A DNA stretch of 64,000 nt from Akkermansia sp. (GCA_043757045.1 JAYVQC010000241.1:10410-74409), one strand, 5' to 3'; numbered from the stretch's first letter, positions 4,770 through 57,593 are shown. Program-made: numbers and translations. The notes: generated from the sequence alone by a model not told the origin.

Positions 4770-4778
4770 GGCGATGTT

Positions 4779-14698: not shown

Positions 14699-14760
14699 GT
14701 GATTTCTTTTATCCGCCACACCCGCGCGAGGCGATGCAAAAATCCTGACGCGGGGGGCAC

Positions 14761-14917
14761 GGACCGCCGAGTCCGCGTGTTCGTAATTCATGGAGCGAAA
14801 AATCCCTCACGCCAAGTCCGCCAAGGGCGCAAAGGTAAAGATCGTTCGCCCGGTTTCACTTTGCGTCCTTCGCGTCCTTTGCGTGAGGCCAAAAGAAACA
14901 CGCGGACTCGGCGGTCC
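14761..14917. repeat. MITE-like element with the same termini (copy 2), perfect 21-bp inverted repeats, different interior
   Basis: ggaccgccgagtccgcgtgtt (14761..14781) and aacacgcggactcggcggtcc (14897..14917). The interior holds a second hairpin built from 9-mer tandem units: cctcacgccaagtccgccaagggcgcaaagg paired with cactttgcgtccttcgcgtcctttgcgtgagg. Confidence 0.8.
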
Positions 14918-20995: not shown

Positions 20996-21071
20996 AACTC
21001 GAAACCAACAGTCCGTTCCAAAACACAGCAGTTCCAAAAACAACAACACCAGAAATCAGAAAGCAGAAAAT

Positions 21072-22591: not shown

Positions 22592-22683
22592 GAAAAGCAG
22601 AAAGCACAACACAGAAATGAATTCACTAAAGCCCAGGACGCCCTTCTGCTTTCTGCTTTCTGCTTTCTGCTTTCTGCTTTTGC
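22592..22683. repeat. Hairpin element with heptamer-repeat arms (aaagcag)n / (tttctgc)n spanning the epimerase start codon
   Basis: The left arm is gaaaagcagaaagca (22592..22606), upstream of the ATG at 22617. The right arm is ttctgctttctgctttctgctttctgcttttgc (22644..22683), covering codons 10-22. Confidence 0.8.
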
Positions 22684-24494
22684 TCGCCTCCGCCAGCGCC
22701 GTGTCTATCCGCTGGTCCGCCGGCACGAGCGATCCGCTCAACATCAAGACCCCGCGCATTTACGTCACAGGGCCTGGCTCCGCCCAACTCAGCGACATCA
22801 AGGCCGCCGTGCCGAAAGCGCCGCTAGCCCAGGTCGCGCCCGGCGTCTGGCACTTGCGCGCGGAACTTGTCGTCGAGGAAGGCGCACGCCTCGTGCTCTA
22901 CGGCACCAAGCTCGGCGGCGACGTGGACGAACTCCGCCTCCAGAGCAACAACACCGGCAGCCCGATCAACGACATCATCTTCCTCAGCGCCGACTGGGGC
23001 ACGCTCGACATTCGCAGCACCAAGATCACTTCGTGGGACGACGCGGTGAACGGACCCGACACCGAATACAACGTCTATAAACGCTCCTTCGTCCGCATCC
23101 GCTCGGTGCTCGGCACGAATGGCGTGACACCCTTCGAGTCCCGCATGGACATCATTGACAGCGACGTGGGCTACCTCGGCTCGCACAACGCCGAAGCCTA
23201 CGGACTCGTGTGGAAAGTGCTCGAAGAGAAAAACCCCGCCGACCGTCCTTACGGCGCGCTCACGAACCTCTATGCCCTCGTGAACGTGTACGGCAACGTC
23301 TTCCGCAGCCGTCTTCACCACATGTATTTCGGCCACTACTCGTTCGGCTCCTACGGCCAGCACATGGCCGACAACGAGGTGGACCACAACGTCGGCTACG
23401 GACTCGACCCGCACGATGACTCGGACTATCTCCTCATCGAGCGCAACAACGTCCATCACAACGGCTGGCACGGCATCATCGCCTCGCAACGCTGCGATCA
23501 CGCCATCATCCGCAACAACATCACCTGGAACAACGGCAAGAACGGCATCATGCTCCACCGTTATTGCAACGACTCGCTCATCGAGGGCAACCGCACCTTC
23601 CGCAACGGCGACGCCGGCATCGCGCTCTTCGACAACTACCGTACTATCGTCCGCAACAACGTCAGTCTGGAAAACGTCACGGCGGGCATTCGGCTTTCCG
23701 TCGGCCCGGCGGACAACATCATCCATAACAACGAGTTCGCCGACTGCGACAGCTTCGGCATCTATCTCTACAAAGGCGTGGACGCGCCTGCGCCCGGCGA
23801 TAACGGCAAGCCCAAACGCAACGTCTTCCGCAACAACTGGATCCACGACAACCGGGGCCACGGCATCTTCTCTACCAGCGGCGACGACAACACGTTCTCG
23901 CAAAACATCTTCGAGCGGAACGCGAACCTCATCTACTTCGTCAACGGCCAGCGCAACATCTTCGAAAGCAATTCCGTGCCGGCCGGCGTCACGCTGCGGA
24001 TGCAGGGCCTGCCGAACATTCTGACCTCCACAATTATCCGCAACCAGGCCGCGCTGCCCATCCAGGTGGACAACTACAGCACCGCAAATTTCGAGGACAC
24101 GTCCGGGAAAATTTTCGACCCCGAGGAACCCGGCATCGCCACCGTCGCCTCGCCCACCGGCTCGTCGCTCATTCTCTCCACGGTGGACATCGCGAAAACT
24201 TCCTTCGTCCGCACGCGCGCCTTCAAGGTGCGCCCGAACGCCGGCTCCGTGCTCGTCACGCCCACGGTCTGGAACGTCACCGGCGACTTCAGCAAACGCT
24301 GGCTCGTGCAGGCGGGCAGCGCCACCTCGAGCATCATCTACACGGTGGGCGATCTCGAACCGGGCCGTCTCTACACCGTGACCAAGAACGGAGCCGGGAG
24401 CAATTTCACCGCGGACCCCACCGGCACCATCACCTTCACCGACACGGGCGTGTCCACCGGACTCACGGAATTCGTGATTGCACTGAAGCTCTGA
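22617..24494 (+). CDS. Secreted right-handed beta-helix protein, mannuronan C5-epimerase (AlgG/AlgE)-like with a DPHD motif
   Basis: Listed ORF 22533..24494, with the ATG at 22617 (MNSLKPRTPFCFLLSAFCFLLLLASASA signal peptide). CASH/parallel beta-helix repeats read NNVHHNGWHGIIASQ, IRNNITWNNGKNGIMLH, IEGNRTFRNGDAGIALF, VRNNVSLENVTAGIRL. VGYGLDPHDDSDY contains the DPHD motif known as catalytic in AlgG. Confidence 0.7.
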   Translation: MNSLKPRTPFCFLLSAFCFLLLLASASAVSIRWSAGTSDPLNIKTPRIYVTGPGSAQLSDIKAAVPKAPLAQVAPGVWHLRAELVVEEGARLVLYGTKLGGDVDELRLQSNNTGSPINDIIFLSADWGTLDIRSTKITSWDDAVNGPDTEYNVYKRSFVRIRSVLGTNGVTPFESRMDIIDSDVGYLGSHNAEAYGLVWKVLEEKNPADRPYGALTNLYALVNVYGNVFRSRLHHMYFGHYSFGSYGQHMADNEVDHNVGYGLDPHDDSDYLLIERNNVHHNGWHGIIASQRCDHAIIRNNITWNNGKNGIMLHRYCNDSLIEGNRTFRNGDAGIALFDNYRTIVRNNVSLENVTAGIRLSVGPADNIIHNNEFADCDSFGIYLYKGVDAPAPGDNGKPKRNVFRNNWIHDNRGHGIFSTSGDDNTFSQNIFERNANLIYFVNGQRNIFESNSVPAGVTLRMQGLPNILTSTIIRNQAALPIQVDNYSTANFEDTSGKIFDPEEPGIATVASPTGSSLILSTVDIAKTSFVRTRAFKVRPNAGSVLVTPTVWNVTGDFSKRWLVQAGSATSSIIYTVGDLEPGRLYTVTKNGAGSNFTADPTGTITFTDTGVSTGLTEFVIALKL

Positions 24495-24544
24495 TTTTTT
24501 CCGCCGACATGATGAACTACGTGTTAGAAAAAACTTTGGTGACA

Positions 24545-27500
24545 ATGGGAAAGCCGTGTCGCCTGGCGGCGGCGCTGCTGATGGGTGCCGTTGGTCTCAC
24601 GACTCTGGCCCCCGGCGCGGAAGTGGTCGTCACGAACGCCGCCAGCATCACCGCCGCCGCGCTCGCCGCCCAGCCCGGCGACGTCATCGTCATGCAGGAT
24701 GGCGTGTGGCCCGACGCAGACATTCTCTTCGCCTCCTACGGCACCGAAGCCCAGCCCGTCACGATCCGCGCGCAGACGCTGGGACGAGTGCATCTCACCG
24801 GCCAGTCCCGCCTGCGGATGGCGGGTGCCCATCTCGTCGTGGACGGACTCATCTTCACCAATGGCTACCGCACCAGCGGCGACGTCATCGCCTTCCGTGA
24901 CAGTTCCTCCTCGGTGGCGTTCAACTCGAAACTGATCAACTGCGCGGTCATTGGTTACAATCCGCCGAACCCCACCAATGACACCAAGTGGGTCTCGATC
25001 TACGGCGCGAGCAACCGCGTCGAGAGCTGCCATTTCCGCGGCAAGGCCAACGTCGGCACCACGCTCATCGTCTGGGTCAGCGAGCTGCCCGATCCGAACA
25101 ACCCGAACTACCACGTCATCACGCGCAATTATTTCGGCCCGCGCCCGATCCTCACCGCTGCGTCGAACGGCGGCGAAACCATCCGCGTCGGCACCTCGGA
25201 TTACTCGATGAACATTTCGCGCACCACGGTCGAGGACAACTTCTTCGAGCGGTGCAACGGCGACGTGGAAATCATCTCCAGCAAGTCCTGCGAAAACATT
25301 TATCGCCGCAACACCTTCTGGGAATGCGAAGGCGCGCTGACCCTCCGGCACGGCAACAACTGCACCGTCGAGGGCAACTATTTCTTTGGCAATCTCCAGA
25401 CCAACACCGGCGGCGTCCGCATCATTGGCGAGAACCACCGCGTGTTTAACAATTACTTCGAGAACCTGCGCGGCTCGTCGTCGCGCGCGCCGCTTGCGTT
25501 CATGCAGGGGCTTCCGAACTCACCCCTCAACGGCTATTTCCAGGTCAGCAACGCCACCGTCGCCTTCAACACGTTCGTAAATTGCAACAACACCTTCGTG
25601 GTCGGCTTGTCCGGCACCGTGGGCGGTTTGCCCACGTCGCTGCCGCCCAAGGATTCCACGGTGGCGAACAACATCGTGCTTCAGACCTCGGGCCGGATCG
25701 TGGATTTGCGGCTGGGACCGGAGAACTTCACCTGGACCTCGAACTTGTTTGCCAGCACCACGCTGGGCATCACCAATCCGGGCGTGCTGCCGGTGAACGC
25801 GTTGCTGGTCACGAACGGCGTGGATGGAATTTATCGTCCGAGCGTGGCGAGTCCGGCACTGGGGCGTGCGGCGGGCGGGTTTGATTTTGTGACGACGGAT
25901 TTTGAAGGCCACGCGCGTCCGCTCTCGGGCAAGGACATGGGTGCGGATCAGGCGTCGGCCGCGCCGCGCACGAGCGTGCCGCTGTCGGCGCTCGCCACGG
26001 GTCCGCTGTGGATGCGAGTGAGTGGCTCGGTGGTGTCGTGGCCGCCGCCCGCGCCGATTTTTTATGGCACCACGCTGGGCGGTTTGCAGTTGAACGCGCA
26101 GGCGAATGCGGCGGGGACGCTGGCGTATGATCCGCCCGCCGGCACGCTGCTCGCCGCAGGATCGAACCAGGTGTTACGGGTGGTGTTCACGCCGGTGGAC
26201 ACGATCAGTTTTTCGAGCGTGGCGCAGACGGTCACGCTGCACGTTTTGCAGGCTCCGGCGGTGGTGACGTGGCCGCACCCGGCGGAGGTGGCTTATGGCA
26301 CGGCGTTGTCGGCGGCGCAGTTGAATGCGTCGGCGAATGTCGCGGGATCGCTGGCCTACAACCCGACGCTGGGCACGGTGTTGAACGCGGGGACGGGGCA
26401 GGTGTTGCGGGTGGTCTTCACGCCGAACGACGTGGCGAATTTCGCGAGTGTGACGCAGCAAGTGGTGTTGAACGTGGCGAAGGCGCTGCCGAATGTGATC
26501 TGGTCCACGCCGGCGGCGGTGGAGCAGGGTTCGGTTTTGGGTGGCGTGCAGTTGAACGCCTCGGTGGCGGTGCCGGGTTCGTTTGTTTATGGGCCGGCGG
26601 CGGGAACGGTGCTCGCGGCGGGGAGCGGGCAAATTTTGTCCACGGTGTTCACGCCGGCGGACGGGGCGAATTATTTCACGGTCACGCAGACGGTGGAGAT
26701 CAACGTGACCATTGGCGGGCGGACGTTGCCGCGCCTTTCTTGGGCGCAGCCGGCGCCGGTGTTGTTTGGCACGCCGCTGGGGGCGTTGCAGTTGAACGCG
26801 TCGGCAAATGTGTTGGGCACCTTCAGGTACTCGCCGCCGTCGGGCACGGTGTTGCCGGTGGGCAACGGAAATGTGCTGCGGGTGACGTTCACGCCGAATG
26901 ACGGAGATAATTTCGTCGCGGCGACGCAGAGCGTGACGTTGAGCGTGGCGCCGCTGACGAGCAACGCCTTGCTGCGTGTGGCTTACGTCGTGCCGTTCAA
27001 TCGCATTCCGCAAGCGCACGCGACAGCGACGTTGCGCGGGCTGGTGCGGCAGTATCAGGATTTTTTTGCGGCGCAGATGGCGAACAACGGTTTCGGCCGG
27101 CGCTCCTTCACGCTGGAGACGGAGGCGGATGGCGTGACGCCGGTGATTCATGTGCTCACCGTGCCGCAGACGGACAGTTTTTTGCGCGGGGACATTTACG
27201 GGCAGCGCGTATTGGATGCGGCCCGCGGCGCGGGGTTGCCGGTCGGAGCGCCGGGACAGCTTTGGTGGCTGATCCCCGAAGTGCATGTGCAGAATCCCGA
27301 CGGCACGATAAGCGGCAGCTTTGAACTCGGCGTCCACACGAACACGTCACCCATCAGCTCGGGCTGGGCGATCAGCAGCAGCGAAAAACTGGCCCTGTAT
27401 CAGACGAAGTACCAGACGAACGCGCTGCTTTACGACGGACGCATCGTGCCGGAACTGGGGCCGTATCCGCTGGTCCAGGATGTGTCGTTCCCGTGGTTCG

Positions 27501-30500
27501 AGGGCATCACACTCTCAGGCATCAGCTCGTCGGTGGTCGGCTCGGGGGCGCGGAGCATCGGCTCGGCGTTCGGTCTGCCGCATGATTTTCGGAACGACGA
27601 AAATTTCAACGGCAACCTGATGGGCTTCGGCTTCCGGGGCATCCGCGGCGTGTTTCACCCGGAGCTGTATCTCTACAATTACTGCACGCTTTCCTACGCC
27701 TCGGCGCTGAACTTGAGCGCGAATCCGTTCTTCAGCCCCGGACGTCTCGCGACGGACATCGTGCCGCCGAACGTGAGCGTCACGACCTCCGGCCCCCGCG
27801 CGCCCTTCGGCGGTCTGCTCGACATTGAATTCACCGCCACGGACGACCAGGCATTGCACTCGGCGGTGCTGACGTGGGAACAGTCGGCGGATTTCGTGAT
27901 GGCCGAGGAGATGTTACTGAACGGCACGTCGGCGGGCGGTACTTTTTCCACCGCCTTTTATTTGCCGGGCCAGACGAACCGCTACCGCGTCACGGTCTAT
28001 GATCGTTTCGGCAATGAGCGTTCGGCCACGACCACCATCGTGCCGTCCGTGCCGGTCAACCAGGCTCCGCAGCCCTTCATCCGCGTCCGCCCCGTGATCG
28101 CGGGACCGGGTGAGGATGTGCTGCTGGATGCCTCGGAAACTTTTGATCCAGAACACACCGTGGGCTTCCTCGAAGTGGAATGGGATCTCACCGGTGATGG
28201 AAACTTCGACACCGCGCCCACCAGCGAACTGGCGGGCCTGTTCAACTTCAGCACGCTGGGCAGCCGCCTCATCCGCGCGCGCCTCACGGACCCGGCGGGT
28301 GATGTCGCCATCTCCGCGCCCGTGGCCCTGAACATTGTGGATTGCCAGACGGGCCTTTCTCCGACCAGCCGCAGCCACGGCTACGGAGGCGGCGCGAACA
28401 AAGTCACCGTCACGGCGGGACCGAAATGCCGCTGGCTGCCCGTGACCACGAATGACTGGATCACGCTCACGAACGGAAACTATCCCGTCGGTCGCGTCAC
28501 TTCTGCCCCCGTTTCCTGTTACGAGGCGGTGGGACCTTCGCCGGTGGGACCGAGAGTGGACGGGCCGGAATTCACCGGCACCGTGGTCCTCAACTACACC
28601 CTCGCGGCCAACCCGCTCTTCACCGAGCGGCGCGGTTACATCTTCATTGGCGATCAAATTTACACGGTCATCCAGCAGCCGGCGGTCTGCACGTTCTCGA
28701 TTTCACCGACCAACCGTTTTCATGGCTACGGCTCCGGCGGCAGCGGCACCATCAAAGTCACGCCCAAGGCGAGCTGCCCGTGGACGGCGATCAACACGAA
28801 CTCCTGGATCACCATCACCTCGGGCGGCAGCGGCACGGGCACGGGCACGGTGAACTACGTCATCGGCGAGAACCGTGTGACCGGGCGGCGCTCGGGCAAC
28901 ATCGTGATTGATGACCGCGTCTTCACCGTCTCGCAGTGGGGTACGAACTGTGAAGTCGCCGTCAACCCCGCGACGCGCGAGCACTCCGCCAGCCCTGAGG
29001 CCGTCACCAACACGATCAGCACGGCTTCGCTTTGCCCGTGGGTGGTCGAGAACACGAACGGCTGGATCAGCATCCTGTCGCCGTTGAGCGGAAACATTTC
29101 GAGCAACCTCATCTATTCTGTCGCGCCGAACTTCGGCGCGGAGACGCGCACCGGTGTCGTGACGGTCAACGGCGAGACGTTGATCATTACACAGTCGGCG
29201 TGCTCGTTGTCCATCGAACCGGCGGCGCGCGCGCATCTGTTCTCCGCGTCCACGGGTTCGATCTGTGTCGCGGCGGGACCGATTTGCGCGTGGTCGGTGA
29301 GCACCACGAACACTTGGATTTCTATCCTGTCCGCGTCGAGCGCGATCAGCACGGGGCGTGTGGATTATGTCGTCGAGGCCAATCCCATCAGCGTGGCGCG
29401 CGTCGGCGTCATCTCGGTGGCGGGGTATGAGTTCCTCATCACGCAAGACCCGAAGCCGTGTTATTTCGCGGTCACGAACATGGACGAGGCGCGCAGCGAA
29501 AGCTTCGGCGAGAGCGGCGGCGACAGTGCCATTTACATCTACACCGACATCGGCTGCAACTGGACGGCGGTCTCGGACTCGACGTGGATTTCCATTCTCG
29601 ACGGCGCTTCCGGCCACGGTTCCGGCACGGTCATCTTCGTGGTCGCGCGCAACGCCGGCCCGGCCCGCAGCGGCCTCATCACGGTCGCGGGCGAGGATTA
29701 TCACATCACGCAGGCCAGCGGCGTGCGCGAGGTGCGGCTCACGGACACGGTCGTGGCGAGCGGGCAGACCAACGCGATTTACATCATCCTCGATGCGCAC
29801 GGCGGCGAAAACACGCTGGCCTTCAGCCTGTGCTACGACACGAACTTGCTCGCCTTCGCCTCGGCGTCCTTGCTCCCGTCCGCGCCACTCACGGCGGTGT
29901 TGACGGTGGCGAACCAGCAGGCGGCGCAGGGCCAGGTCGGCCTCACCGTCGCGATGCCCAACGGCTTCTCGCTCCCCGCCGGCACCGGCACGGTGGTGAA
30001 AGTTTTGCTCGCGGGCAAACTGGTCAACGGCAAGCCCTACACCACGGTCAGCGTGTGCGACGCGCCCGTCGCGCGCTCCTTGACGGACGCGGGTTCTCCG
30101 CCTTCCGCGCTGACGGCGAGTTTCGGCAGCAGCACCGTGCGCGTGCTCGGCCTGTGCTCGCTGGCCGAAGCGCTGGACGTGACGAATCTGACCTTCGTGA
30201 CCGGCCCGATCCCGTGGGGCTGCCAGGCGGAAGTGACGCACGATTTCGAAGATGCGGCCGTGAGCGGCACGGTGCCGGCGAGCGGTGAATCCTATTTTGA
30301 AACCACCGTGACCGGCCCCGGCACGTTGAGCTTCTGGTGGAAAGTATCGAGCGAACTGGACAACGATCGTCTGCGTTTCTACATGGACGGCGGCACGCAG
30401 TTCACCCTCTCCGGCGAAGTGGACTGGGAGGCGCGCACCTTCAGCGTGCCGGCCGGCGCGCACACCTTCCGCTGGCGCTACAACAAAAACCTCGGGACGA

Positions 30501-33500
30501 TCACGAACGGCCAGGATCGCGCGTGGGTGGATCGGGTCGTCTATGAGGCCGCGCCGCCGAGCATCACCAGCCAGCCCGTGGCGCAGGCCGTGGATCAGGG
30601 CGCGACGGCGACCTTCAGCGTGGCGGTCGCGGGCCAGGCTCCGTTCACGTATCAATGGCGGTTGAACAATGCGCCGCTGGTCGAGAACGCGGTCATTCGC
30701 GGCACCATCACGCCCACGCTCACGCTCTCGAATGTGCAGCCCTCGCAGATCGGAAATTACTCCGTCGTCATCACCACGGCGCAGGGCGCGCTGGTCAGCT
30801 CGAACGCGCCGCTCACCGTCACGCCGCTGTTGCCGCTGCCCGAGGCGCTCGACACCACGTTCAACATCACGTCGAGCGGCAACGCGAACTGGGTCGGCCA
30901 GGCGCTCGTCTCGCACGACGGCGTGGACGCGGGCCGCAGCGGGCCGATCACGCACAACCAGTCGTCATCGTTCCAAACCATCATCAACGGCCCCGGCACA
31001 CTCCGCTTTTGGTGGAAAGTTTCCTCCGAATCCGGTGACCGCCTGCGCTTTCTCATCAATGGCGTCGAGCAGACCGGCATCACGGGTGACGTGGACTGGC
31101 AGGAAAAAATTTACACTCTCGGCCCCAACGCCCAGACGCTGCTCTGGACTTACGCGAAAAATTCCAGCGGCTCGCTGCTCGAAGATCGCGGCTGGGTGGA
31201 TGAAATCCGCTTCCTCCCGCAAGCCGTCGCCATCACCGCGCAGCCCACGAACCAGATCACCGACCAGGGCACGAACGCCCTCTTCGCCGTGGGCGTGAGC
31301 GGCACCCCGCCCATTTATTATCAATGGCTGTTCAACAACGCACCCATCCCCGGCGCGAACAGCGCGACGCTCAATGTTCCCAACGTGCAGCCTGCGAACA
31401 ACGGTCTCTACTCCGTCTTCGTCACCAACGTCGTCGGCAGCACGACCAGCTCGAACGCCTCCTTGCTTGTGAACCTCCTCGTCCCGCTGGCCGAGGCGCT
31501 CGACACCACGAACCTCACCTGGACTACCACCACGACCCCCGCCGGAGCCGCGCCGTGGGTCGGCCAGGTCGCCACTTCGCACGACGGCACCGACTCCGCC
31601 CGCACCGGCATCATCGGGGACGGCGTCACCACCACGCTCGCCACCACGCTGACCGGACCCGGCACGTTCTATTTCTGGTGGAAAGTTTCCTCGCAAGGTG
31701 CCGGCTCCGACCGCCTGCGCTTCTACATCAACGGCTCCGCGCAGGAGGACATCTCTGGCGAAGTGGACTGGACTTTCCGCAGTTGGACCATCCCCAGCGG
31801 CGCGAACCAGATCGTGGATTTCCGTTACGTGAAAAACGCCAGTGGCAAGGCCGGCCTCGACATGGGCTGGGTGGACCAGGTGCGTTACGTGCCGAACGGC
31901 ACGCCCACCGCGCCGTTCTTCGCCGTGCAACCGGCCCCTCGCACCGTGGTCGTGCCGGCGGGCGTCAGCTTCAACGCCCTGGCCGGCGGGTCCACGCCGC
32001 TCAATTACCAATGGCAGTTCAACGGTGTGCCGCTGACCAACGGCGCCGGCATCGCCGGCGCTACGACCACCAACCTCACGCTCAGTGGCGCGGCGGCGGC
32101 CGTGGCGGGAAATTATTCCGTGCTCGTCACGAACAGCGCGGGGGCCACGCTCAGCGCGCCGGCCTCGCTCACCGTCATCACCGCGCCTTTCATCACGAAC
32201 GCGCCGGTGGACCGCTACGCCGTCGCCGGATCGAACGCCGTCTTCAACGTCGGCGCGCTCGGCCAAGCCCCGCTCACCTACCAGTGGATGCGCGACGGCA
32301 CGAACCTGATCAACGGCGCGAAGTTCAGCGGCGTCACCACTTCCAATCTCACCATCCTTAGCGCGCAGGTGGCAGATGAAGGAGTTTATTCCGTCATCGT
32401 GAGCAACGCCGCCGGTACCGCAAGCAGCTTGCAAGGCGCAGGCACGCTCACCGTTTGGAGCGCGGCGCGCAGCGGCGTGATTGCGAACAGCGGGAACACC
32501 TTGCTCGAAGCGAACGTGACCGGACCGGGCACGATTAAGTTCGCGTGGAAAGTTTCCTCGCAGACGAACAGCGACTCCTTCCTCTTCCTGCGTGGTGCGA
32601 CGGAACTTGCCCGCATCTCCGGCGAAGTGGACTGGCAGCAGCAGACGTTCGCCATTCCGGCGGGCGCGCACACCTTGCGCTGGCAGTACGTGAAGGACGC
32701 GGCCGGCAGCGCCGGTTCCGACGCGGGCTTCCTCGATCATGTGGAGTTCATTTCCGACACCGCCGTCGCGCCCCAGGTCACGGGGCAGCCGACGGGCCGC
32801 ACCGTGTTCTCAGGTAGCACCGTGAGCTTCGACGCAACGGTGACCGGCTCCATGCCGCTCACCTATCAATGGCGTTTGAACGGCACGCCGCTGTTCAACT
32901 CCGCCAGCATCGGCGGCGCGCAGACGCCGCGTCTCACGCTCTCCGGTCTCACGCTCGGCCAGGCGGGCAGCTACTCACTGCTCGTCAGCAACGCGGCGGG
33001 CGTCGTCACCAGTTCAAACGCCGCGCTCGTCGTCAATGCCCTTCCGGCGGGCAACGCGCCCGTCATCACCACGCCGCCCACGAGTTATCAGACGAGCGAG
33101 AACGCTTCTGTGACTTTCACCGTCGCCGCGACCGGCGCGGCCCCGCTCAGTTATCAATGGTTCTTGAACGGCGCTCCGCTCGCGAACGTCGCCGGAGCCA
33201 GCCCCGTCAGTGGCGCGACCACCGCGAGCCTCAGCTTGAGCAACGTGCAGGCGACGCAGGCGGGCAACTACACCGTGGTCGTCAGCAACGCCGTCGGCCT
33301 CGCCAGCGCCCGCGCTTCGCTCTCCGTCCTCACGCTCGGCGAGGCGGCAGGCGCTCCCTACATCGCCTTCGCCCAGGCCGGCAACGCCTCGTGGATCGCG
33401 CAGACCAGCGCCACCGCGCACGACGGCGTGGACGACGTCCGCTCCGGCGTCATTAATCACGGCGAAAATTCGCGCCTGGAAACGTATGTCGAGGGACCGG

Positions 33501-36500: not shown

Positions 36501-39500
36501 GCGGCTCCATGCCGGGCAGCGAGTCCACCACTTTGAAAACGACGGTGCAGGGGCCGGGCACGCTCTCCTTCTGGTGGCGCGCGTCCACGGAAACGAACGT
36601 GGACATCATGAGCTTCGAAATTAACGGCGCCATCACCTCGGAAATTTCCGGCAACCACAACTGGTCGCAGAAAACCTATGACCTCGACTCCGGCACGTTT
36701 GTGCTGACGTGGAATTACAACAAGAGCGGTCTTTTCACGAACGGTCTCGACACCGTGTTCCTCGATCAAGTTGTGTTCGCGCCCATCGCGCCGATCCTCA
36801 CGAACCAGCCGGTGGCGCGCGTCATTGACCAAGGCTCGGCGGTCAGCTTCACCGCCGGGGTGCGCGGCACTCCGCCTCTTTCGTACCAGTGGTTCCTCAA
36901 TGGCTCGCCGCTGGTCAACGGCGGCGGCATCAGCGGGGCACGGACGCTCACGTTGAACTTGAGCGGCGTGCAGCTTGCGCAGGCGGGCTACTACTCGGTC
37001 GAAGTCAGCAACGTAGTGGGCGCGGTGAACAGCTTGCCGGCAGCGCTCACGGTGTTGCCGACCTTCCCGATTGCCGAGGCGATTGATAACGCGGATTACG
37101 CCTGGACCACGGGCAGCCCCGGCTGGATCGGGCAGAACCAGACGACCTTCGACGGCGTGGATGCGGTGAAGTCGCCGACCACGGCGAACAGTGGAAGTTC
37201 GACGATGCAGGCGACCCTCGCCGGTCCCGGCACCGTGCAGTTCAAGTGGAAGGTGTCCTCGCAGACGAACAACGGCACGGGCGGCGACGAGTTGATTTTC
37301 TACACGAACAACACCGCGCTCGCGCGCATCTCCGGCGAAGTGGGCTGGGAACAACGCTCGTTCTCGATCCTGCCCGGCAATCAGATCGTGAAGTGGACTT
37401 ACGCGAAGAACGCCAGCGTGACCAACGGCCAGGATCGCGGCTGGGTGGATCAATTTGTCTTCATCCCCACGCCGCCGAGTGTGACGACGCATCCGGCGGG
37501 AACGAATGTGGATCAAGGCGCGAGTACGACATTCACGGTCGGGGTATATGGCACGCCGCCGTTCACGTATCAGTGGCGCTATCAGGGCGTCGATATGTTT
37601 GGTGCGAACAGCGTGTCCGTGACGTTGAACAATGTGCAGCCGTGGCAGGCGGGCAATTACTCCGTCGTCGTCGGCAACGCGGCCGGCACGGCAAACAGTC
37701 TAAGCGCGGCGCTCACGGTCAACACGCTGGTCCCGCTCGCCGAGGCGCTCGACACCACGAACTTCGTCTGGGCGACCAGTGGCTCGCCCGCGTGGGTCGG
37801 CCAGATCGCCGTGGCGCACGACGGCTCGGATTCCGCCCGCATCCAGGACGTGCCGCACAGCGGCTCGGCCTCGGTGCAGACGACGATTCTCGGCCCGGGC
37901 ACGATCAGTTTCTGGTGGAAAGTTTCTTCGCAGACGAATGGTGATTATCTCACCTTCTACACGAACGGCGTCCTCGCCGTCCGCATCTCCGGCGAACAAG
38001 ACTGGGAAACCCGCGCCATCAATCTCGGCTCCGGCAACCAGACCCTCACCTGGACCTACGCGAAAAACACCAGCACCGTCGCCGGCCAGGATCGCGCGTG
38101 GCTCGACCAAGTCGGCTTCGGTCCCGTCGCGCCCACCATCACCGTGCAGCCCGCGAGCCGGGGCGTTGATGCCGGCAATGGCACGACCTTCGCCGTCACC
38201 GTCGCCGGCACCCCGCCCTTCACCTATCAATGGCAGCGCAACGGCCTCGACCTCGCCAACGGCCCCGGCCTCAGCGGCGTCAACACCTCCAACCTCGTCC
38301 TCACCGGCGTGCAGTCCGGCCAGGCCGGCGCGTATCGCGTCCTCGTCAGCGGCCAGGCCGGCGCGACGATCAGCGCCGCGGCGAACCTCACCGTCTATTC
38401 CATCCTCGCGCTCGACGAAGCCCTCGACACCCCCGGCCTCACTTGGACCACCAACGGCACCCCACCCTGGGTCGGCCACGCCGCCGTCACTCACGACAAC
38501 ACCGACGCCGCCCGCAGCGGCTCCATCGGCCACAGCCAAAGCACCTCCATGAGCACCATTCTCAACGGACCCGGCGCAGTGAGTTTCTGGTGGAAAGTTT
38601 CTTCGCAGACCAATGGGGATTACCTGACCTTCTTCACGAACGGCGTCCTCGCCGTCCGTATCTCCGGCGAACAAGACTGGCAGTTCAAGACCATCAACCT
38701 CGGCTCCGGCGCGCAGACCCTTACCTGGACTTACGCGAAGAACAGCAGCACCACCAACGGCGAAGACCGCGCCTACGTGGATCAAGTTTCCTTCGGCCTC
38801 GTTGCCCCGACCATCATCACCCAACCCGCGAACGTCACCGCCGAACCCGGCAGCAACGTCACCTTCACCGTCGTCGCCGCCGCCACGCCCCCTGTCTATT
38901 ATCAATGGCTGTTCAACGGCTCCCCGCTGGCCAACGGCCCCGGCCTCAGCGGGACCACCAACGCCTCCCTCATCGTCTCGAACGTCGGAGCCTCCGCCGT
39001 CGGCACCTACTCCGTCGTCGTCAGCAACTCCGTCAACCGCGTCACCAGCGCCGGCGCCACCCTCACCCTCAGCTCTAACGTCACCATCAACGCCGCCCTC
39101 GATGGCGGACTCGCCTTCACCACCGGCGGCACCGCCCCCGCGTGGAAAGGCCAGACCGGCGTCACCCGCGACGGCGTGGACGCCGCCCAGACCGGCCCCG
39201 CCACCGACAGCACCTACAGCTTCCTCAAAGTCACCGTCACCGGACCCGGCCCCCTCTCCTTCTGGTGGAAGTGCAGCACCGAAGTGGACCACGACTACCT
39301 TCGCTTCATGGTGGACGCTGTGGACCAGGTGAAAATCTCCGGCGAACAAGACTGGCAACTCATCAACTTCGACGTCCCCTCCGGCAGCCACGAACTCCAA
39401 TGGCGCTACTCGAAAAACTCGACCCTCACCGCCGGCGAAGACCGCGGCTGGCTCGACTACGTGTGGTTCAACCAGACCCCGCCCCCCATTATCATCGTCA

Positions 39501-40456
39501 CCACCACCCCGCCCGCCATCGTCATGCAACCCGCCAGCCAGAGCGTGGAAGCCGGCGACATCGTCACCCTCGCCGTCGCCACCACCGGCAGCGCGCCCCA
39601 GACCTACCGCTGGTTCCACAACGCCACCAACCTCCTCACCGACGGACCCACCATCGGCGGAGCCAACACTGCGGAACTCACCTTGTATAACATCGCCGAA
39701 GCGCAAGCCGGCCACTACACCGCCACCATTACCAACAGCGCCGGGGCGGCCAGCACCACACCCGCGCTCGTGACCGTGCTCCCCGTCATAGACCTCGCCG
39801 AGGCGCTCGACTCCTACGACCTCTTCTTCACCACCGTGGGCGAGGCCGGCTGGATTGGCCACACCGTGGTCACCCACGACGGCACCGACGCCGCCCGCAG
39901 CGGCCGCATTTTCGACAACCAGAGCAGCACCCTCGAGACGATGGTGACCGGCCCCGGCAGCGTGAGCTTCTGGTGGAAAGTCAGTTCCGAGACCAACGCC
40001 GACCACCTGACCTTCTTCCTCAATGGCGTGCCGCAACAATCCATCTCCGGCGAAGTGGGCTGGCAACCCCGCAGCTACCCGCTCGGAGCCGGCACGCAAC
40101 TGCTCGAATGGACCTACTTCAAGAACGGCAGCATCTCGACCAACGCGGACCGAGGCTGGCTCGATCAAATTGTTTACAGCGACCAGCCGCCCGTGACCAA
40201 CGCCGTGAGCGTGAGCAACCTGCACCTGGCCGTGGACGGCAACACGCTCTCCATCCACTGGGAAGGCAGCGCGAGCAAGACCTACAAAGTTTATTACAAA
40301 GAAGCGTTGAGCGACCCGCAATGGACGCTGCTCGACACCGAAGTGCGGGTGACGTGGAAAGTGGTCGGGGGCGAGATCGTGCCCGACGCGATCACCGCCA
40401 CCGCCACCGACGGCATCGGCACCAGCATGAGATTCTATCGCGTGCAGGAGCAATGA
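24545..40456 (+). CDS. Giant (~5,300 aa) secreted multidomain protein. Order: PL6 lyase head, 4x MBG-like, PKD-like, 5x BACON-like, cohesin-like, 13x uncharacterised module interleaved with Ig I-set domains, C-terminal RFYR module
   Basis: Single uninterrupted ORF 24509..40456. A likely start is [27 protein letters not shown] at 24545. Domain evidence is listed under the separate domain features. Every long ORF on the opposite strand here is Arg/Gly/Asp/His-rich, with no repeat logic. Confidence 0.9.
   Translation: [5303 protein letters not shown]
24617..25950 (+). other. Polysaccharide lyase family 6 (chondroitinase-B / alginate lyase type) catalytic beta-helix domain of the giant protein
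   Basis: [79 protein letters not shown] and [17 protein letters not shown]. The Lys (SSKS) and Arg (LRHG) positions match the PL6 catalytic Lys/Arg pair as I recall it from chondroitinase B. Confidence 0.75.
26031..26955 (+). repeat. Four tandem ~75-aa MBG-like (YG..L...QLNA...G.F.Y.P..GTVL.AG...L.V.FTP.D..NF) repeats
   Basis: Copies begin [90 protein letters not shown] and [30 protein letters not shown]. Each ends VFTP.D..NF..VTQ.V.L.V. Confidence 0.7.
28342..29720 (+). repeat. Five BACON-like ~88-aa repeats inside the giant protein
   Basis: Each unit has C.[FLY]...P..R.H......G.i.V.....C.W.....N.WI.I.S...G.G.V.Y.V..N.....R.G.i.V.g....i.Q. An example is [83 protein letters not shown]. Confidence 0.7.
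29721..30150 (+). other. Cohesin-like domain (giant protein)
   Basis: [50 protein letters not shown]...[31 protein letters not shown]. It is parallel to the modules at 56941..57360 and 60795..61240 (shared pattern G.TN.....L.a.G.EN...FS..fDTN.La..sa). Confidence 0.55.
30150..40200 (+). repeat. Array of 13 copies of an uncharacterised ~140-aa module (hallmark GPGT.[9 protein letters not shown]...D.L.F..NG.....ISGE.DW......L..G...L.W.Y.K......G.D.GW.D.V.F), each followed by 1-3 Ig I-set-type domains (hallmark PL.YQW..NG..L)
   Basis: I counted 13 FWWKVSS-type hallmarks in the translation, from [23 protein letters not shown] (~30330) to [23 protein letters not shown] (~39965). The Ig units read P.IT.QP....V..G..A.F.V.A.G..PL.YQW..NG..L........TL.L..VQ...AG.Y.V.VSN..G...S..A.LTV. 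Confidence 0.8.
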
Positions 40457-40505
40457 CGCGCGCCCCGCGTGACGGGGCGGCGAGAGCAAAGATTTGTTTT
40501 CAACT

Positions 40506-41951
40506 ATGCCAATGGACAACCAACAGAGAGTGATGTTTTGCGCCGTCGCCACGGCGCTGGCGCTCACGTGCGCGACCACGCGCAGCGCCGAAGCCGCCGC
40601 CCCGGCGGGTTTGCCGCGCAGCAGCGCCGCGCCGGCCGGCTGGCTCTCGCAACCGATCTCCCTCGACGACGCCATCCGCATCGCCCTCGCCCAGAACGGC
40701 GACATTCTCAAAGCCCAGCACGAACTGGAAGCCGCGCACGGCGTCTCGCTCCAGACCCGCGCCGTGGTGCTGCCGAAAATTCGCGGCTCCGCCGGCTACG
40801 AACACACCCAGGCCGTCGAGCGCGATCCGTACAGCCAACAACAAGCCTTCCAGCCTCTGCGGAACAACTGGACCGGCGGCATTCGCCTCCAGCAAAACAT
40901 TTACGAAGGCGGCCGCCTCGCCGCCTCCTGGCGCGCGGCGAAGCTGGTCAAGGAACAAGCGTATCAGGATTACCTCACGGTCATCGCTGACACCATTCTC
41001 GAAGTCCGCACCGCCTACTACGACGTGCTCCTCGCCGAACAGCAGATCGCCGTGCAAGAGGCCTCCGTGCGCCTGCTGTCCGAAGAACTCGGCAACACCA
41101 GGAAACGTTCCGACGCCGGGGCCGTGCCGCGCTTCGACGTGTTGCGCGGCGAAGTGCAGGTCGCGAACGCCCGCCCCCGCCTCATCCGCGCGCAGAACAA
41201 TTTTCGCACCGCCAAAAACAAACTTGCCACCGCCCTCGGCCACAACCTCCCGACCACCGTGCTCGAAGACATCCCGCTGGTGCTGACCTCGAAGCTCGAC
41301 CCGGTGCCTTATGAAATCGCGCTGCCGCAGGCGCTGGAACTGGCCCGCGCGCGCCGTCCCGAGCTGCATTCGCTCCGCACGGAAATTGACCTCCAGCACG
41401 AGCGCGTGAAGATCGCCCAGTCCGGCTACCTGCCCGCGCTCGGCGTGTATGCCGGCTACAAAGCTTACAACAGCGAGTTCAGCGGGAACTTTTACAAGGA
41501 CGTGTCCGGCCCCATCGCCGGCGTGGAGATGAACTGGGACATCTTCGACGGCCTGGCCACGCGCGGTCGCGTCGTCGAGGCGCGGGCGCGCGAAGCGAAG
41601 TCCACCGTGAATCTGGCCGACCAGACGCGCCGCGTGGAGCAGCAGGTGCGGACGTTCTATTCGAGCTTCACCGAAGCCCGGGAAGTCCTGAAGTCGCAGG
41701 AAAAAAATGTGGAACGCGGCGAAGAAGCCATCCGCCTCGCGTCCTCGCGCTACGACGCCGGCAGCGGCACGCAACTCGACGTGCTCGACGCGCAAACCTC
41801 TCTCACCGAGGCGCGCACCACGCAGATTAATGCGACCCGCGATTATCTCGTGGCCCGCGCGCGCGTCGAACGCGCCATCGGCCTCGAAGTGGAGCGCGCG
41901 CAGACCAGCGCGCCGACGACGGTGGAAACTTGGAAGCCGAAGACCAAATGA
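40506..41951 (+). CDS. TolC-family outer-membrane channel protein
   Basis: ORF 40494..41951, with the ATG at 40506 and signal peptide MPMDNQQRVMFCAVATALALTCATTRSAEA. The two-fold OEP repeat architecture shows LSLDDAIRIALAQNGDILKAQHELEAA and ARRPELHSLRTEIDLQHERVKIAQSGYLPAL, plus RYDAGSGTQLDVLDAQTSLTEARTTQINATRDYLVARARVERAIG. Confidence 0.85.
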   Translation: MPMDNQQRVMFCAVATALALTCATTRSAEAAAPAGLPRSSAAPAGWLSQPISLDDAIRIALAQNGDILKAQHELEAAHGVSLQTRAVVLPKIRGSAGYEHTQAVERDPYSQQQAFQPLRNNWTGGIRLQQNIYEGGRLAASWRAAKLVKEQAYQDYLTVIADTILEVRTAYYDVLLAEQQIAVQEASVRLLSEELGNTRKRSDAGAVPRFDVLRGEVQVANARPRLIRAQNNFRTAKNKLATALGHNLPTTVLEDIPLVLTSKLDPVPYEIALPQALELARARRPELHSLRTEIDLQHERVKIAQSGYLPALGVYAGYKAYNSEFSGNFYKDVSGPIAGVEMNWDIFDGLATRGRVVEARAREAKSTVNLADQTRRVEQQVRTFYSSFTEAREVLKSQEKNVERGEEAIRLASSRYDAGSGTQLDVLDAQTSLTEARTTQINATRDYLVARARVERAIGLEVERAQTSAPTTVETWKPKTK

Positions 41952-44900
41952 GGAAAGCAGAAAATAGAAAGCAGAAATCAGCACAGCGCGCACCCGGTGC
42001 GCGGGCGCTGCTGCTGCTTATTTCTGCTTTCTGCTTTCTACTCTCTGCTTTCCCCCTTGGGGCGGCTGAGTTCGACACCTTGCGCCTGCGCTGGCGCGAC
42101 CTGCTTACGCAGGGGACGAACGCCAGCTTCGCCAATCCGCTTTACCAGAACTGGATCAGCTCGGTGGGCAACAGCGCGCAGTCCTACTGGTCCACGATGA
42201 ACACCAGTCCGACGCGCACCAATCTCTGGAGCGCGTATCCGTATCCCGCCGCCGATTCGAGCGACATCAGCGGCACCTACTCGCGCCTGCGCACGATGGC
42301 GCTCGCCTACTCGATCAAGGACTCCGCGCTCGAAGGCAACACCGGCCTGCGCTCCGCGACCATCAACGGCTTGGACTGGATGTTCACCAATCACTACAAC
42401 GCGTCCTCCGTCGTCTTCGACAACTGGTTCGATTTCGAGATCGCCACGCCCTTGGTGCTGAATGACATCACCACGCTGCTCTACTCGAATCTTTCGCCCG
42501 CGCAGATCAGCAACTACATGGCGGCGGTGGAGCACTTCACGCCCACGCCGAGCGAGAGCTTCATTTCCACGAATCTCACGGCGGCGAACAAGATCTGGAA
42601 GTCGCTCGTCGTGGCGGTGCGCGGCGTGCTGGTGCAGAACTCGAACAAAGTCGCGCTCGCGCGCTCGGGTTTGAGCGACGTGTTTCCGTACGTGACGAGC
42701 GGCGACGGTTTTTATCGCGACGGCTCGTTCGTGTTTCACAACGAGTTCGCCTACAACGCAGGCTACGGCGTGGAACTGCTCGATTCGATGGGTTCGATGA
42801 TGCAGTTGCTCACCGGCTCGACGTGGGCCATCACCGATCCCGCGCAGACCAATGTCTTCCGCTGGGTCACGGATTCCTTCCAGCCGTTCTTCGCGCGCGG
42901 CGCGGCCATGGAGATGGTGGATGGCCGGTACCACACGCGCAACGGCGACGCCCACGAGCGCGGCCATGAAATGCTCAGTGCCATTCTCCGCGTCGCGCAA
43001 GTTGCGCCTCTGGCCGACGCGACGGCCTACAAATCTTTTGTGAAGGGCATGATTCAGTCCGACACGTATCGCAATTTTCTCACCGCGCAATCGCCGCCTT
43101 ACAACGTGTGGGCCAGCGCGGCGCTCAACGACACGAACATCCCCGCGCGAGTTGTGACGACCGAGCATCGGCAGTTTCCCGGCATGGACCGCGTGGTGCA
43201 TCACACGCCGGACTGGACGTTCGCTCTCTCCACGTCGTCGAGCCGGATCGCGAATTACGAATCCACGCGCGGCGAAAATCTCAAGGGCTGGTACACGGGC
43301 GAGGGCATGACCTACCTCTACAATCGCGAGCTGGGCCAATACTCGGATCAGTTCTGGGCCACGATTGATCCGTATCGCCTGCCCGGCACGACGGTGGACA
43401 CGTTCACGCGCACGAACGGCTCGGGCGATTCCTATCGCAGTCCGAACAACCAGACCGGCGGCGCGTCGATCCTCGGTTTGTACGGCGTGAGCGCGATGCA
43501 CTTGAACGCCTGGGTCAGCACGCTGGCCGCGCGCAAGTCGTGGTTCGTCTTCGACAACGAAATCGTCTGCGTGGGCAACAGCGTGAGCAGTGCGGAAACG
43601 AACAGCGGCGTGGAAACGATCATCGAAAACCGCCGCCTCGGACTCTACGGCAACAACGCTTTGACCGTGAACGGCACGGCCAAGCCCAGCGGCCCCGGCT
43701 GGAGCGAGACGATGAACGGCACGTCGTGGGCGCATCTCGCCGGGACCGCAAACGACACCGACATTGGGTATTTCTTCCCATCGAGTACGACGGTGAAGGC
43801 GCTGCGTGAATCGCGCGCGGGCGCGATGCGCGATCTCAACACCACCTACGGCTCGGCCACGAAATACACGCGGCACTACCTCACGATGTATTTCGACCAC
43901 GGCACAAATCCGAACAACGGCACCTATTCGTACGTGCTGCTGCCCGGCATGTCCGCGAGCGCCGTCGCAGCCTACGCCGCCAGCCCCGACATCACCATTT
44001 TGCAGAACAACAGCACGGCGACGGCGGTGCGCGAGAACAGGCTGGGACTCGTCGGCATCAATCACTGGCGCGATTCGTCGAACCAGGTCGCGGGCGCGGG
44101 CATCAGTTTCAGTCACAAGGCGGCGGCGATTTTGAAGAACGACGGCACCGTGCTCGACCTCGGCGTTTCTGATCCCACGCAGACGAACACGGCGGGTCTC
44201 ACGGTGGAATTGACGAACTCGGTGACGGCGGTGTTGTCCTTGGATGCGGGCGTGACGGTGTTGCAGACCAGCCCGCTGCGGTTGCTGTTCAACACCAGCA
44301 ACACCTACGGCGCAACGTTGCGCGCGAAGTTCAGCGTCGGCGCGTTTCAAACCAACGCGCTGCTCGCCATCGCGGACGCGCATGTGCAGAACGGTGCGGC
44401 GGCGGTCACGAATTTTGGCACGAGTTCGACGCTCTCGGTGAAGGCGGGCAGCGCCAGCACCACGCGCGAGACGTTCTTGAAGTTCGATTTGTCGTCGGTG
44501 CCGGGGACGATTGTCGGAGCGAACCTGCGGCTGGTGTCGCGCTCGTTTGTCGAGCCGGTGTTTCACACAGCGGCGTTAGTCTCGGACAATTCGTGGACGG
44601 AAACAGGCGTCATCTGGAACAACAAGCCGGGTTCGACCACGCCCACGGTGACGTGGCCGGTCGTGGGGAACAACCTGACTTCGACCATTCCGGTCACGGC
44701 CTTCATCACGCCGGCATTGGCGAATGGCGGCGTGTTGTCCTTCCGGATTTTCAGCAATGGCACGAACAGCTCGGGGCCGACGAGCAGCAGTGAATTTGTC
44801 AGCTATGGGGCGCGCGAAAACTCGGCGGCGAATGTGCCCCAACTCCTCGTGAGTTACGTGCGCTCGGCTCCTGCGGTCTCGCTCACCAGTCCTGAGGATG

Positions 44901-57581: not shown

Positions 57582-57593
57582 GCGGAGGCCCGA

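Follow-up and report, generated by a model that had tools for sequence, protein, structure and literature searches.

Tandem-armed palindromes at the starts of secreted-protein genes in an Akkermansia sp. contig: probable rapidly evolving sources of signal peptides

The sequence analysed here (the window) is a 64-kb stretch of Akkermansia sp. DNA (GCA_043757045.1, JAYVQC010000241.1:10410-74409), from a verrucomicrobial genome of soil type, and the elements in question are palindromes with arms of short tandem units that lie at or across the starts of genes. The two that were studied most closely belong to an alginate-like exopolysaccharide cluster (17933-46504) which encodes a GT2 protein, a membrane-fusion protein, a GDP-mannose/UDP-glucose dehydrogenase, a beta-helix epimerase-like protein, a 5315-aa chondroitinase-B-domain protein, an outer-membrane efflux protein (OEP) and a PL8 lyase, in an order that is kept in the relatives L124-L131. 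The motif TTTCTGCTTTCTGC is found 14 times in the window at up to two mismatches, against 0.44 expected from dinucleotide shuffles (∼30-fold; none of 100 shuffles reaches 14). Thirteen of the 14 matches fall within 21049-21069, 22597-22677 and 41950-42048, the outlier at 18888 being weak (two mismatches), and Tandem Repeats Finder reports period-7 arrays at 21050, 22644, 41953 and 42021. All three sites of this TTTCTGC type, or flavour, sit within the exopolysaccharide cluster. The hairpins and strings quoted in a first-pass annotation of this DNA are present in the sequence, the inverted repeats are real and their folds are stable. The signal peptides discussed below were assigned by sequence logic and orthologue alignment and are putative.

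The PL8 gene product comprises Lyase_8_N, Lyase_8 and Lyase_8_C domains together with CBM96, PA14 and Ig domains (Pfam), and its gene directly follows that of the OEP (Pfam). Its start codon at 41948 forms the base of the hairpin stem and overlaps the TGA of the OEP gene (ATGA), which refines the start in the first-pass description of this hairpin, while the coding nature of both arms is upheld. The 5' arm (41944..41981, plus strand; inverted repeats I3 and I7) consists of the degenerate heptamers GAAAGCA/GAAAATA/GAAAGCA/GAAATCA, includes the ATG and encodes the n-region RKAENRKQKS. It is followed by an inner GC-rich stem-loop of the minimum free energy structure (41982..42023, plus strand), which encodes AQRAPGARALLLL, and by the 3' arm (42024..42061, plus strand), a (TTTCTGC)∼4.6 array that encodes the h-region ISAFCFLLSAF. 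In I3, 41944-41981 pairs with 42024-42061 over 38 nt (84% complementary), and the RNA fold of the hairpin has an energy of -62.1 kcal/mol (z -5.5). Translation from 41948 gives MRKAENRKQKSAQRAPGARALLLLISAFCFLLSAFPLGAA|EFDTLRLRW, in which seven K/R and one E are followed by ALLLLISAFCFLLSAF and then by G-A-A|E. The signal peptide thus predicted (41948-42067, plus strand) would be cleaved at A40|E41, with the mature protein starting from the GAG codon at 42068 and Lyase_8_N from residue 49. In 45 of 45 homologues the signal peptide ends right before (D/S)EFDTLRLRWRD, at the cleavage site predicted for the window, so that the predicted cleavage, within the string PLGAAE earlier described as cleavage-like, coincides exactly with the orthologue-conserved mature start. 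No in-frame ATG, GTG or TTG is present between the ATG at 41948 and the conserved mature N-terminus; both arms must therefore be translated if the enzyme is exported.

The second gene encodes a right-handed Beta_helix/NosD protein (Pfam), the homologues of which are named mannuronan C5-epimerase in their source records. The 5' arm of its hairpin (22593..22619, plus strand; AAAAGCAGAAAGCACAACACAGAA plus the ATG at 22617-22619) lies in the 5' untranslated region (UTR), directly after a conserved stem-loop that trails the dehydrogenase stop codon, and the 3' arm (22644..22684, plus strand) is a (TTCTGCT)x5.9 array of 97% identity that encodes FCFLLSAFCFLLL. Inverted repeat I11 pairs 22593-22617 with 22657-22681 (25 nt, 88% complementary), and the RNA folds at -29.0 kcal/mol (z -3.2). 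The purine arm does lie just 5' of the ATG, as first annotated, but the ATG is at the stem/loop boundary and not free in the loop. The protein read from 22617 is MNSLKPRTPFCFLLSAFCFLLLLASASA|VSIRWSAG, with MNSLKPR followed by TPFCFLLSAFCFLLLLA and by A-S-A|V; its predicted signal peptide (22617-22700, plus strand; cleavage A28|V29, mature codon 22701) ends where the homologues share their mature start (VSIRWSAG or V.FRWS), and the array is the sole hydrophobic segment ahead of that point. As judged from the translations, the hairpin segments are thus the only possible signal peptides of the PL8 and beta-helix proteins, both of which need them. The array at 22644-22684 places a non-triplet repeat between the ATG and the mature codon, which is the arrangement expected of a contingency locus, and it is near-uninterrupted (97% matches), as high slippage would require. 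Two Logan contigs from the window organism (L001 and L002) both end inside the (TTTCTGC)n array, at about position 22671 of the window. Arrays of this kind break de Bruijn assemblies, and metagenome bins are consequently biased against these junctions.

The peptides that such arms encode follow from the genetic code. (TTTCTGC)n encodes the stop-free cyclic heptapeptide F-L-L-S-A-F-C in all three frames and (GCAGAAA)n encodes A-E-S-R-K-Q-K; each arm gives one cyclic peptide in every frame because the unit length is not a multiple of three and the translated units are stop-free. Every unit met in the T-rich arms is stop-free and hydrophobic to near-neutral (mean Kyte-Doolittle hydropathy +0.07 to +3.5), and the A-rich complement arms encode hydrophilic, mostly net-basic peptides (-0.9 to -2.9). 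This complementary-hydropathy symmetry of the genetic code is established. Stop-containing 5' arms (GCTGAAA and GCTGAAAA, with a stop in every third unit) are found only upstream of the ATG (L124 and L127-L129), and the 5' arms found inside open reading frames are of the stop-free flavours GCAGAAA, ACGCAGAG and GAACATC. The initial proposal, in which the charged n-region comes from the purine arm and the hydrophobic h-region from the complementary arm, is borne out by the translations and the orthologue alignments, and the sharing of SAFCFLL by two unrelated enzymes is indeed an automatic, frame-independent product of the 7-nt unit. For the same reason, the observation that the arms are in frame, although correct in that both PL8 arms are translated, has no informative value, since any frame would give the same cyclic peptide.

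Comparison with relatives shows that the segment between the upstream gene and the first mature codon is replaced repeatedly. At the PL8 junction, the closest relative, of 78% identity with conserved OEP-lyase synteny (L122), has a hairpin at exactly the same place that is built from other heptamers (AAATGCA... / TGCATTT...; -37.6 kcal/mol, z -2.8), and the next, of 72% identity (L123), has a plain signal peptide with neither a 5' arm nor a fold (z +1.2). The beta-helix junction was compared among eight syntenic loci (membrane-fusion protein, dehydrogenase, beta-helix protein, giant protein). Conservation of the DNA extends through the stem-loop behind the dehydrogenase stop codon and resumes at the first mature codon, and everything between is replaced. 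The window has (GCAGAAA)/(TTTCTGC) arms; L124 and L131, the proteins of which cluster with that of the window at 90% identity or more, have the 8-mer arms (AGCTGAAA)/(TTTTCAGC); and L125 (88%) retains only a leader remnant together with a plain signal peptide. L127 (71%) combines (GCTGAAA)/(TTTCAGC) arms with a nested (GTGAGTG)/(CACTCAC) hairpin. Among the members of cluster 5, all at 67% identity to the window, L128 and L129 have outer (GCTGAAA)/(TTTCAGC) arms, each with its own nested inner hairpin (ACACGAAT/ATTCGTGT and CGGAAATCCG-type, respectively), and L130 has a (GTGAGTG)/(CACTCAC) hairpin; L126 (67%) has (GAACATC)/(GATGTTC) arms. The variable segments fold at z -3.1 to -10.8 in seven of the eight lineages, L125 being at z 0.0.

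This turnover is also seen between very close relatives, in which the 5'UTR and signal-peptide segment is exchanged as a block. The mature beta-helix protein of the window is 97% identical to proteins with the 8-mer flavour, unit sequence or unit number varies among proteins whose mature parts are 97-100% identical, and clusters defined at 90% identity contain two signal-peptide types in one case and four in another. N-termini turn over in the same way in ten further clusters, where one h-region has an in-frame indel of 9 nt (P0385 and P0387). The 3' arm of L128 is a mosaic of TTTCAGC, TTTCTGC and TTTCCGC units. On this sequence evidence, flavours interconvert by point mutation followed by slippage-driven homogenization, and the return of the window flavour in a lineage that is only 67% identical (P0263) is thereby explained. 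Genome-wide homogenization of one flavour by a trans-acting factor was considered and rejected, as a single 47.6-kb NCBI contig carries a TTTCAGC-type beta-helix signal peptide (P0249) and a TTTCTGC-type PL8 signal peptide (P0256).

The most direct indication of switching is a frameshift allele of the beta-helix gene. The arrays of L131 and L124 differ by exactly one 8-nt unit (three versus four units), and the mature codon is 94 nt away from the ATG in L131 (remainder 1 on division by 3) versus 102 nt in L124; the L131 ATG is out of frame because one 8-nt unit has been lost. The sole remaining in-frame start of L131 is a GTG that would yield the ten-residue stub MLLLAHTASA. A further sequence, P0243, known here as protein, has the flanking residues of L131 with the array in frame, and it is 100.0% identical over 596 mature residues to P0247, the product of L131. 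By this comparison, one lineage exists in both in-frame and out-of-frame repeat-number states, which is the defining behaviour of a contingency locus, here in a single pair of sequences. For a PL8 protein, P0257 (1402 aa), encoded on a 78,463-nt ENA contig that also carries P0243, the called start is an internal Met about 116 residues into the protein, whereas the cluster mates of P0257 keep the full hairpin-encoded signal peptide; P0257 may be a second out-of-frame repeat allele. A metagenome scan with the loop/array junction for copy-number variants of the window's own beta-helix array returned one chance match in an unrelated gene.

The window contains at least five palindromes with a purine-rich or A-rich tandem-unit arm on the 5' side and its T-rich complement on the 3' side. 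Their units differ between flavours, so that the 'one repeat family' of the first-pass annotation is replaced by at least five unrelated units sharing an architecture, within which flavours can be one base apart and, in L128, mosaic. One of these palindromes provides a third independent case of a charged segment followed by a hydrophobic one. It lies at 1974..2106 on the minus strand (inverted repeat I1; 8-nt units GCAGAGAC / GTCTCTGC, also tabulated as ACGCAGAG / CTCTGCGT; -74.5 kcal/mol, z -10.6), within the 5' end of a secreted cyclophilin-domain gene (646..2118, minus strand), and contributes the N-terminus AQRRRDAEMQRR...LSLSASLRLCVSAL, read as MSSDLAQRRRDAEMQRR...LSLSASLRLCVSALILFVTCAGLSA|E. 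The only possible starts of this protein, M1 and M14, are both ahead of the 3' arm, which holds 3.4 copies at 94% identity. Some orthologues of the cyclophilin family have a plain signal peptide and others have N-termini of the type TQRR.DAE.QR...SASLRLCVSAL, sometimes with a further hairpin resembling a repetitive extragenic palindrome (REP) nested in the loop. In P0267, P0292, P0270 and P0473 the N-termini contain nested VRDSVEHH.../...WGSTESHPT and GSTPSGL...PGAIHVEALRAS segments.

The two remaining hairpins are not translated as signal peptides. That of a TPR gene (14805..14888, minus strand; ∼9-nt units GACGCAAAG / CTTTGCGTC; inverted repeats I5 and I8; z -6.0) is in the 5'UTR, upstream of the ATG at 14791 on the minus strand, and is nested in a second, 28-nt inverted repeat (14754-14781 / 14897-14924). 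A non-coding hairpin at 57590..57656 (plus strand; 7-nt units GGTCCAA / TTGGACN; z -2.2) starts 9 nt past the stop codon of a 3442-aa gene and lies upstream of a BACON-domain gene (ATG 57715). A degenerate (GGTCCAN)x4.6 array with the same unit is found at 56894-56925, about 660 nt upstream of this hairpin, where the 3442-aa gene encodes the C-terminal part of its product; no other such array was seen deep within a coding region. The REP-like repeat around the TPR gene (12050..14791, minus strand) belongs to a family with core GGACCGCCGAGTCCGCG, a small palindrome (six matches in the window versus 1.2 expected), that forms two inverted pairs flanking the gene (11867-11900, 12005-12038, 14754-14781 and 14897-14924). 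The repeat-armed hairpin and the start codon both lie within the pair 14754/14897 (28 nt, 93% complementary), of which the 3' arm is translated as NYEHADSAVRAP. A perfect 32-nt inverted repeat, GTGGAGCGCGGGCTTTAGCCCGCTTCAACGTG, is located at 7130-7161 / 7208-7239 (100% complementary, 46 nt apart, with a small palindrome in each arm) near the 3' end of a long open reading frame (4200..7364, plus strand).

Solo arrays with no partner arm are also present. A purine-rich (GAGAGTC)x3.4 array (47720..47743, plus strand) encodes RVESRESR in the n-region of the 3442-aa PA14 protein (ATG 47682), and the leaders of two cytoplasmic enzymes consist of (CACGAAC)x3 (3051..3071, minus strand), 8 nt upstream of the ATG of a DHDPS-family gene (3042), and of (CAGAAAN)x3 (21050..21071, plus strand), directly before the ATG at 21072 of the UDPG_MGDP_dh (algD) gene. 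The algD leader had been taken for a further copy of the repeat. It lacks a complementary arm, shows no structure (z +1.2) and forms part of a long A/C-rich tract, and the sequence ...ATCAGAAAGCAGA...ATG is kept upstream of the dehydrogenase in seven of seven relatives whatever their hairpin flavour; it is an ancestral, conserved leader. The non-triplet-period arrays of the window lie at gene boundaries, save for two weak ones (9815 and 20987), and its arrays of period 6 have no inverted partner and are coding repeats of the ordinary in-frame kind. Gene leaders (for example 21047-21071, 22592-22616 and 57690-57714) are A/C-rich and G-poor with, by eye, no obvious Shine-Dalgarno motif, which suggests initiation independent of Shine-Dalgarno pairing in this organism and may explain why purine-rich leader arrays are tolerated or favoured.

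All five hairpins of the window have the A-rich arm first. This polarity is intrinsic to the element, because the reverse complement of a purine arm, loop and pyrimidine arm keeps the same order. At least 119 (TTTCTGC)3 stretches are found in species-representative genomes, several per genome in some, and the matches listed include Acidobacteriota, Verrucomicrobiota, Gemmatimonadota, Bacteroidota, Planctomycetota and others. Among these matches, a (GCAGAAA)2-like arm lies within 250 nt upstream of 30 of 125 arrays and downstream of none (27:0 for arrays with full flanks). This polarity fits either an A-rich leader followed by a U-rich h-region or the polarity of terminal repeats, and it holds for intergenic copies too. 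By a crude classification of the matches listed from other phyla, the gene context is tandem in 24 cases, convergent in eight and divergent in six, and arrays within the first 300 nt of an open frame have a moderate sense bias (26 versus 10). Several Bacteroidota genes (L019, L030, L078, L097 and L104) have a solo array as the h-region of what is convincingly a signal or lipoprotein peptide. The loops are unrelated among 30 hairpins compared, as are those of the two window copies. In the Gemmatimonadaceae hairpins L040, L057 and L073 the loops hold a widespread GTCATCCCCGCGAAAGCGGGGATCCATG palindrome that is gene-called as M(D/G)PRFRGDD, and the nested REP-like inserts suggest that the loops of repeat-armed hairpins also attract true mobile palindromes.

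These elements are probably fast-evolving tandem-armed palindromes that straddle the starts of mostly secreted-protein genes, that is, a start module made of simple sequence repeats (SSRs) which evolves in situ, with the behaviour of a contingency locus. When translation begins at an ATG within the 5' arm or shortly behind it, the palindrome yields the putative n- and h-regions of a Sec-type signal peptide, and the cleavage site and the mature protein belong to ordinary conserved sequence. The arrays evolve in place through slippage and unit homogenization, and the loss of one unit puts the ATG out of frame. The loci could then act as phase-variable switches for secreted or exopolysaccharide-modifying enzymes, like the CTCTT repeat in the Neisseria opa leader. 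A very stable hairpin might limit independent initiation, in which case PL8 would rely on coupling to the OEP gene through the ATGA overlap, and the hairpin may be processed in the manner of the Haemophilus hmw 5'UTR hairpin.

Several observations weigh against this reading. Only one clean in-frame/out-of-frame pair was found, and it comes from metagenome assemblies; all other full-length members listed for the TTTTCAGC-type subgroup of the beta-helix cluster have equal array length. The PL8 arms are degenerate (unit identity 77% and 84%), and the PL8 and cyclophilin arrays should slip rarely because of such degeneracy and have the appearance of fossil arrays that became fixed as signal peptides of the ordinary kind. 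Some lineages have no hairpin at all (L123, L125 and P0123). As regards an RNA-level role, G.U pairs number 33 on the sense strand versus 81 on the antisense strand, and the antisense fold is the more stable in nine of 13 cases. Stem imperfections are correspondingly biased to A.C on the sense strand, which looks like coding and initiation constraints eroding a palindrome that arose at the DNA level and not like selection for pairing in the mRNA. A regulatory role of the RNA hairpin in translational control is plausible, although it shows no positive signature. Local folding energy (-40..+110) at 22 gene starts was not discriminating, the genome being GC-rich and several hairpins exceeding the span. 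A role as terminator or attenuator was rejected: a crude consensus scan (GC-rich stem-loop with a T-run of at least five in eight placed 0-2 nt behind it) finds none at 41700-42300 or 22400-22800, the A-arm/GC-stem/T-arm layout being a mere resemblance. In 57450-57800 its sole call, 57776-57792, is downstream of the hairpin and inside the next gene.

The first-pass annotation had proposed a portable cassette for secretion, and the part of this proposal by which the repeat supplies a signal peptide is retained. Its mobile form, in which copied palindromic elements such as miniature inverted-repeat transposable elements (MITEs), REPs or paired REPs (REPINs) land at 5' ends and donate a ready-made signal peptide, appears improbable. 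It would account for the replacement of the 5'UTR and signal-peptide block between proteins of at least 90% identity, for the nesting of hairpins within hairpins (L127, L128 and L129; P0267/P0292; window 14754-14924), for the presence of one flavour at three sites within 21 kb of the window and in the many phyla noted above, for a strict polarity such as terminal inverted repeats would show, and for the inner sequence GCAGTGAACTGCC common to the Gemmatimonadaceae copies. However, the elements have no conserved full-length sequence or ends, no target-site duplication and unrelated loops, and so fall outside the definition of MITEs and REPs; the variable block is bounded not by element ends but by functional boundaries, a terminator-like stem and the first mature codon, and its flanks are not duplicated. 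The one-base interconversion of flavours and the mosaics within one array also argue against transposition, the arm-like algD leader is ancestral, and a one-unit difference between otherwise identical alleles indicates slippage. No transposase or RAYT-like gene was seen beside the hairpins, although no search was aimed at them. A selected RNA regulatory hairpin (start sequestering or coupling, thermosensor, RNase III site or mRNA stabilizer), with translation of the arms being incidental, is a little less improbable but still doubtful. It is favoured by the stable fold at the same junction in seven of eight lineages despite replacement of the sequence, by a T/A difference that is coordinated between the two arms when the window is set against its 97%-identical relatives, by start codons placed in stems or at their edge, by the PL8 ATGA overlap, which would let a terminating ribosome open the stem, and by the precedent of the hmw heptamer-repeat 5'UTR hairpin that is cut by RNase III (PMC12721329). 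The A.C bias and the G.U asymmetry are the opposite of what a selected sense helix would show, close relatives manage with plain unstructured starts (L123, z +1.2; L125, z 0.0), and the identical architecture is also found 3' of a gene (57590-57656) and, in other phyla, between genes in all orientations. A scan of the whole window with Rfam covariance models gave no match at the gathering score.

About equally doubtful is that the palindromes are neutral by-products, A-rich leaders and U-rich h-regions being naturally complementary and inflated by slippage and quasi-palindrome correction with no function of their own. The A-arm-first polarity is that of leader and then h-region, solo A-rich arrays are found in the leaders of genes for non-secreted proteins (21050 and 3051), L125 combines leader remnants with a plain signal peptide whose DNA, TTTGTCTGCCTGTTGCT, resembles a TTTCTGC seed, the pattern of stem erosion fits coding and initiation constraints that oppose pairing, and the complementary hydropathy of the code agrees with such an origin. 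This leaves unexplained the hairpins away from the starts of secreted-protein genes (14805, 57590 and the convergent intergenic cases) and the 30:0 polarity of intergenic copies in other phyla, and most lineages retain stems of -60 to -130 kcal/mol across starts in spite of the cost that these should carry. An artefact of annotation, with real starts downstream and the arrays merely in the 5'UTR, is very improbable. Gene callers do over-extend stop-free repeats, the true start being clearly downstream of the array in several loci of other phyla (L016, L027, L040 and L087), and an adequate shorter signal peptide would result from an in-frame ATG within the 3' arm of L126. In the window, by contrast, PL8 has no alternative start before its mature codon, the beta-helix array is the only hydrophobic segment before the mature start and both cyclophilin starts precede the 3' arm; the products are multidomain enzymes of extracellular or periplasmic type, every orthologue of which has a signal peptide at that position.

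The nearest functional analogue of the start module evolving in situ is, by comparison of sequence layouts, the Neisseria opa repeat, a CTCTT pentamer coding repeat in the leader-peptide region that mediates phase variation by slipped-strand mispairing (PMC3960869). Both are pyrimidine-rich, non-triplet repeats in the signal-peptide coding region that encode a stop-free hydrophobic peptide (LFSSL in opa) in any frame, and in both a change in unit number shifts the frame between the ATG and the mature protein, as in L131 versus P0243. In contrast, opa has a single array of 5-nt units with no complementary upstream arm or long hairpin, while units here are 7-9 nt, and it belongs to a host-restricted pathogen with measured switching, whereas the present genes encode polysaccharide-active enzymes of an environmental verrucomicrobium and are known from sequence alone. 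The nearest structural analogue is the 122-nt hairpin in the 5'UTR of Haemophilus influenzae hmw1A/hmw2A, in which (ATCTTTC)n forms one arm; it is processed by RNase III, and the repeat number varies in populations (PMC12721329). It likewise has a heptanucleotide SSR transcribed 5' of a secreted adhesin gene in a long, very stable hairpin with a purine-rich partner. Its repeat arm, however, is 5' and pyrimidine-rich and is paired with a non-repetitive G-rich tract, a polarity opposite to that of the window elements, and the hairpin is untranslated and wholly in the 5'UTR, whereas the present elements have tandem arrays in both arms, of which one or both are coding.

REPs and their composites, bacterial interspersed mosaic elements and REPINs, are similar in being abundant intergenic hairpin repeats, which differ from strain to strain at orthologous positions and may sit one inside another. 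A family sequence is conserved among REPs, and REP-associated tyrosine transposases (RAYTs) are linked to them; the present elements have no conserved sequence beyond the short unit, their arms are internally tandem and they extend into coding sequence. The short tandemly repeated repetitive (STRR) sequences of cyanobacteria are tandem heptanucleotide arrays of several unit types dispersed in intergenic DNA and are comparable in these respects, but to our knowledge they have not been described as obligate inverted pairs of fixed polarity or as signal-peptide coding sequence. The combination of two tandem arms, translation of one or both, A-rich-first polarity, rapid unit turnover and occurrence in polysaccharide-active enzymes of environmental bacteria is distinct from these analogues. 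Literature searches on SSRs and phase variation in Verrucomicrobia and on heptanucleotide repeats in signal peptides found only precedents from pathogens, and those on the hairpin peptides SAFCFLL, FCFLLSA, NIEHRT, FDVRCS and SAFQLF found no relevant paper.

Signal peptides are usually viewed as slowly drifting, anonymous sequence. Here the putative n- and h-regions of at least three unrelated secreted enzymes arise from a self-complementary SSR and are swapped wholesale between relatives that are 97-100% identical in the mature part. This offers a testable route to the de novo birth and turnover of secretion signals, in which the A-rich strand would encode the basic segment and its complement the hydrophobic one in any frame. 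The arrays also have practical consequences, as they mislead gene callers on starts, seed databases with spurious low-complexity N-termini and break short-read assemblies. Repeat-number switching has been studied extensively in Neisseria, Haemophilus, Campylobacter and other pathogens, and the present results suggest that it operates on the secreted polysaccharide-active enzymes of environmental Verrucomicrobia. More tentatively, the elements may represent an undescribed, phylum-spanning class of A-arm-first tandem-armed palindromes that serve free-living bacteria as evolvable start modules, creating or replacing signal peptides de novo by virtue of the complementary hydropathy of the code and toggling secreted and exopolysaccharide-modifying enzymes by a one-unit frameshift, with arms that co-evolve through hairpin-templated repair. 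If so, contingency-locus biology would extend beyond host-adapted pathogens.

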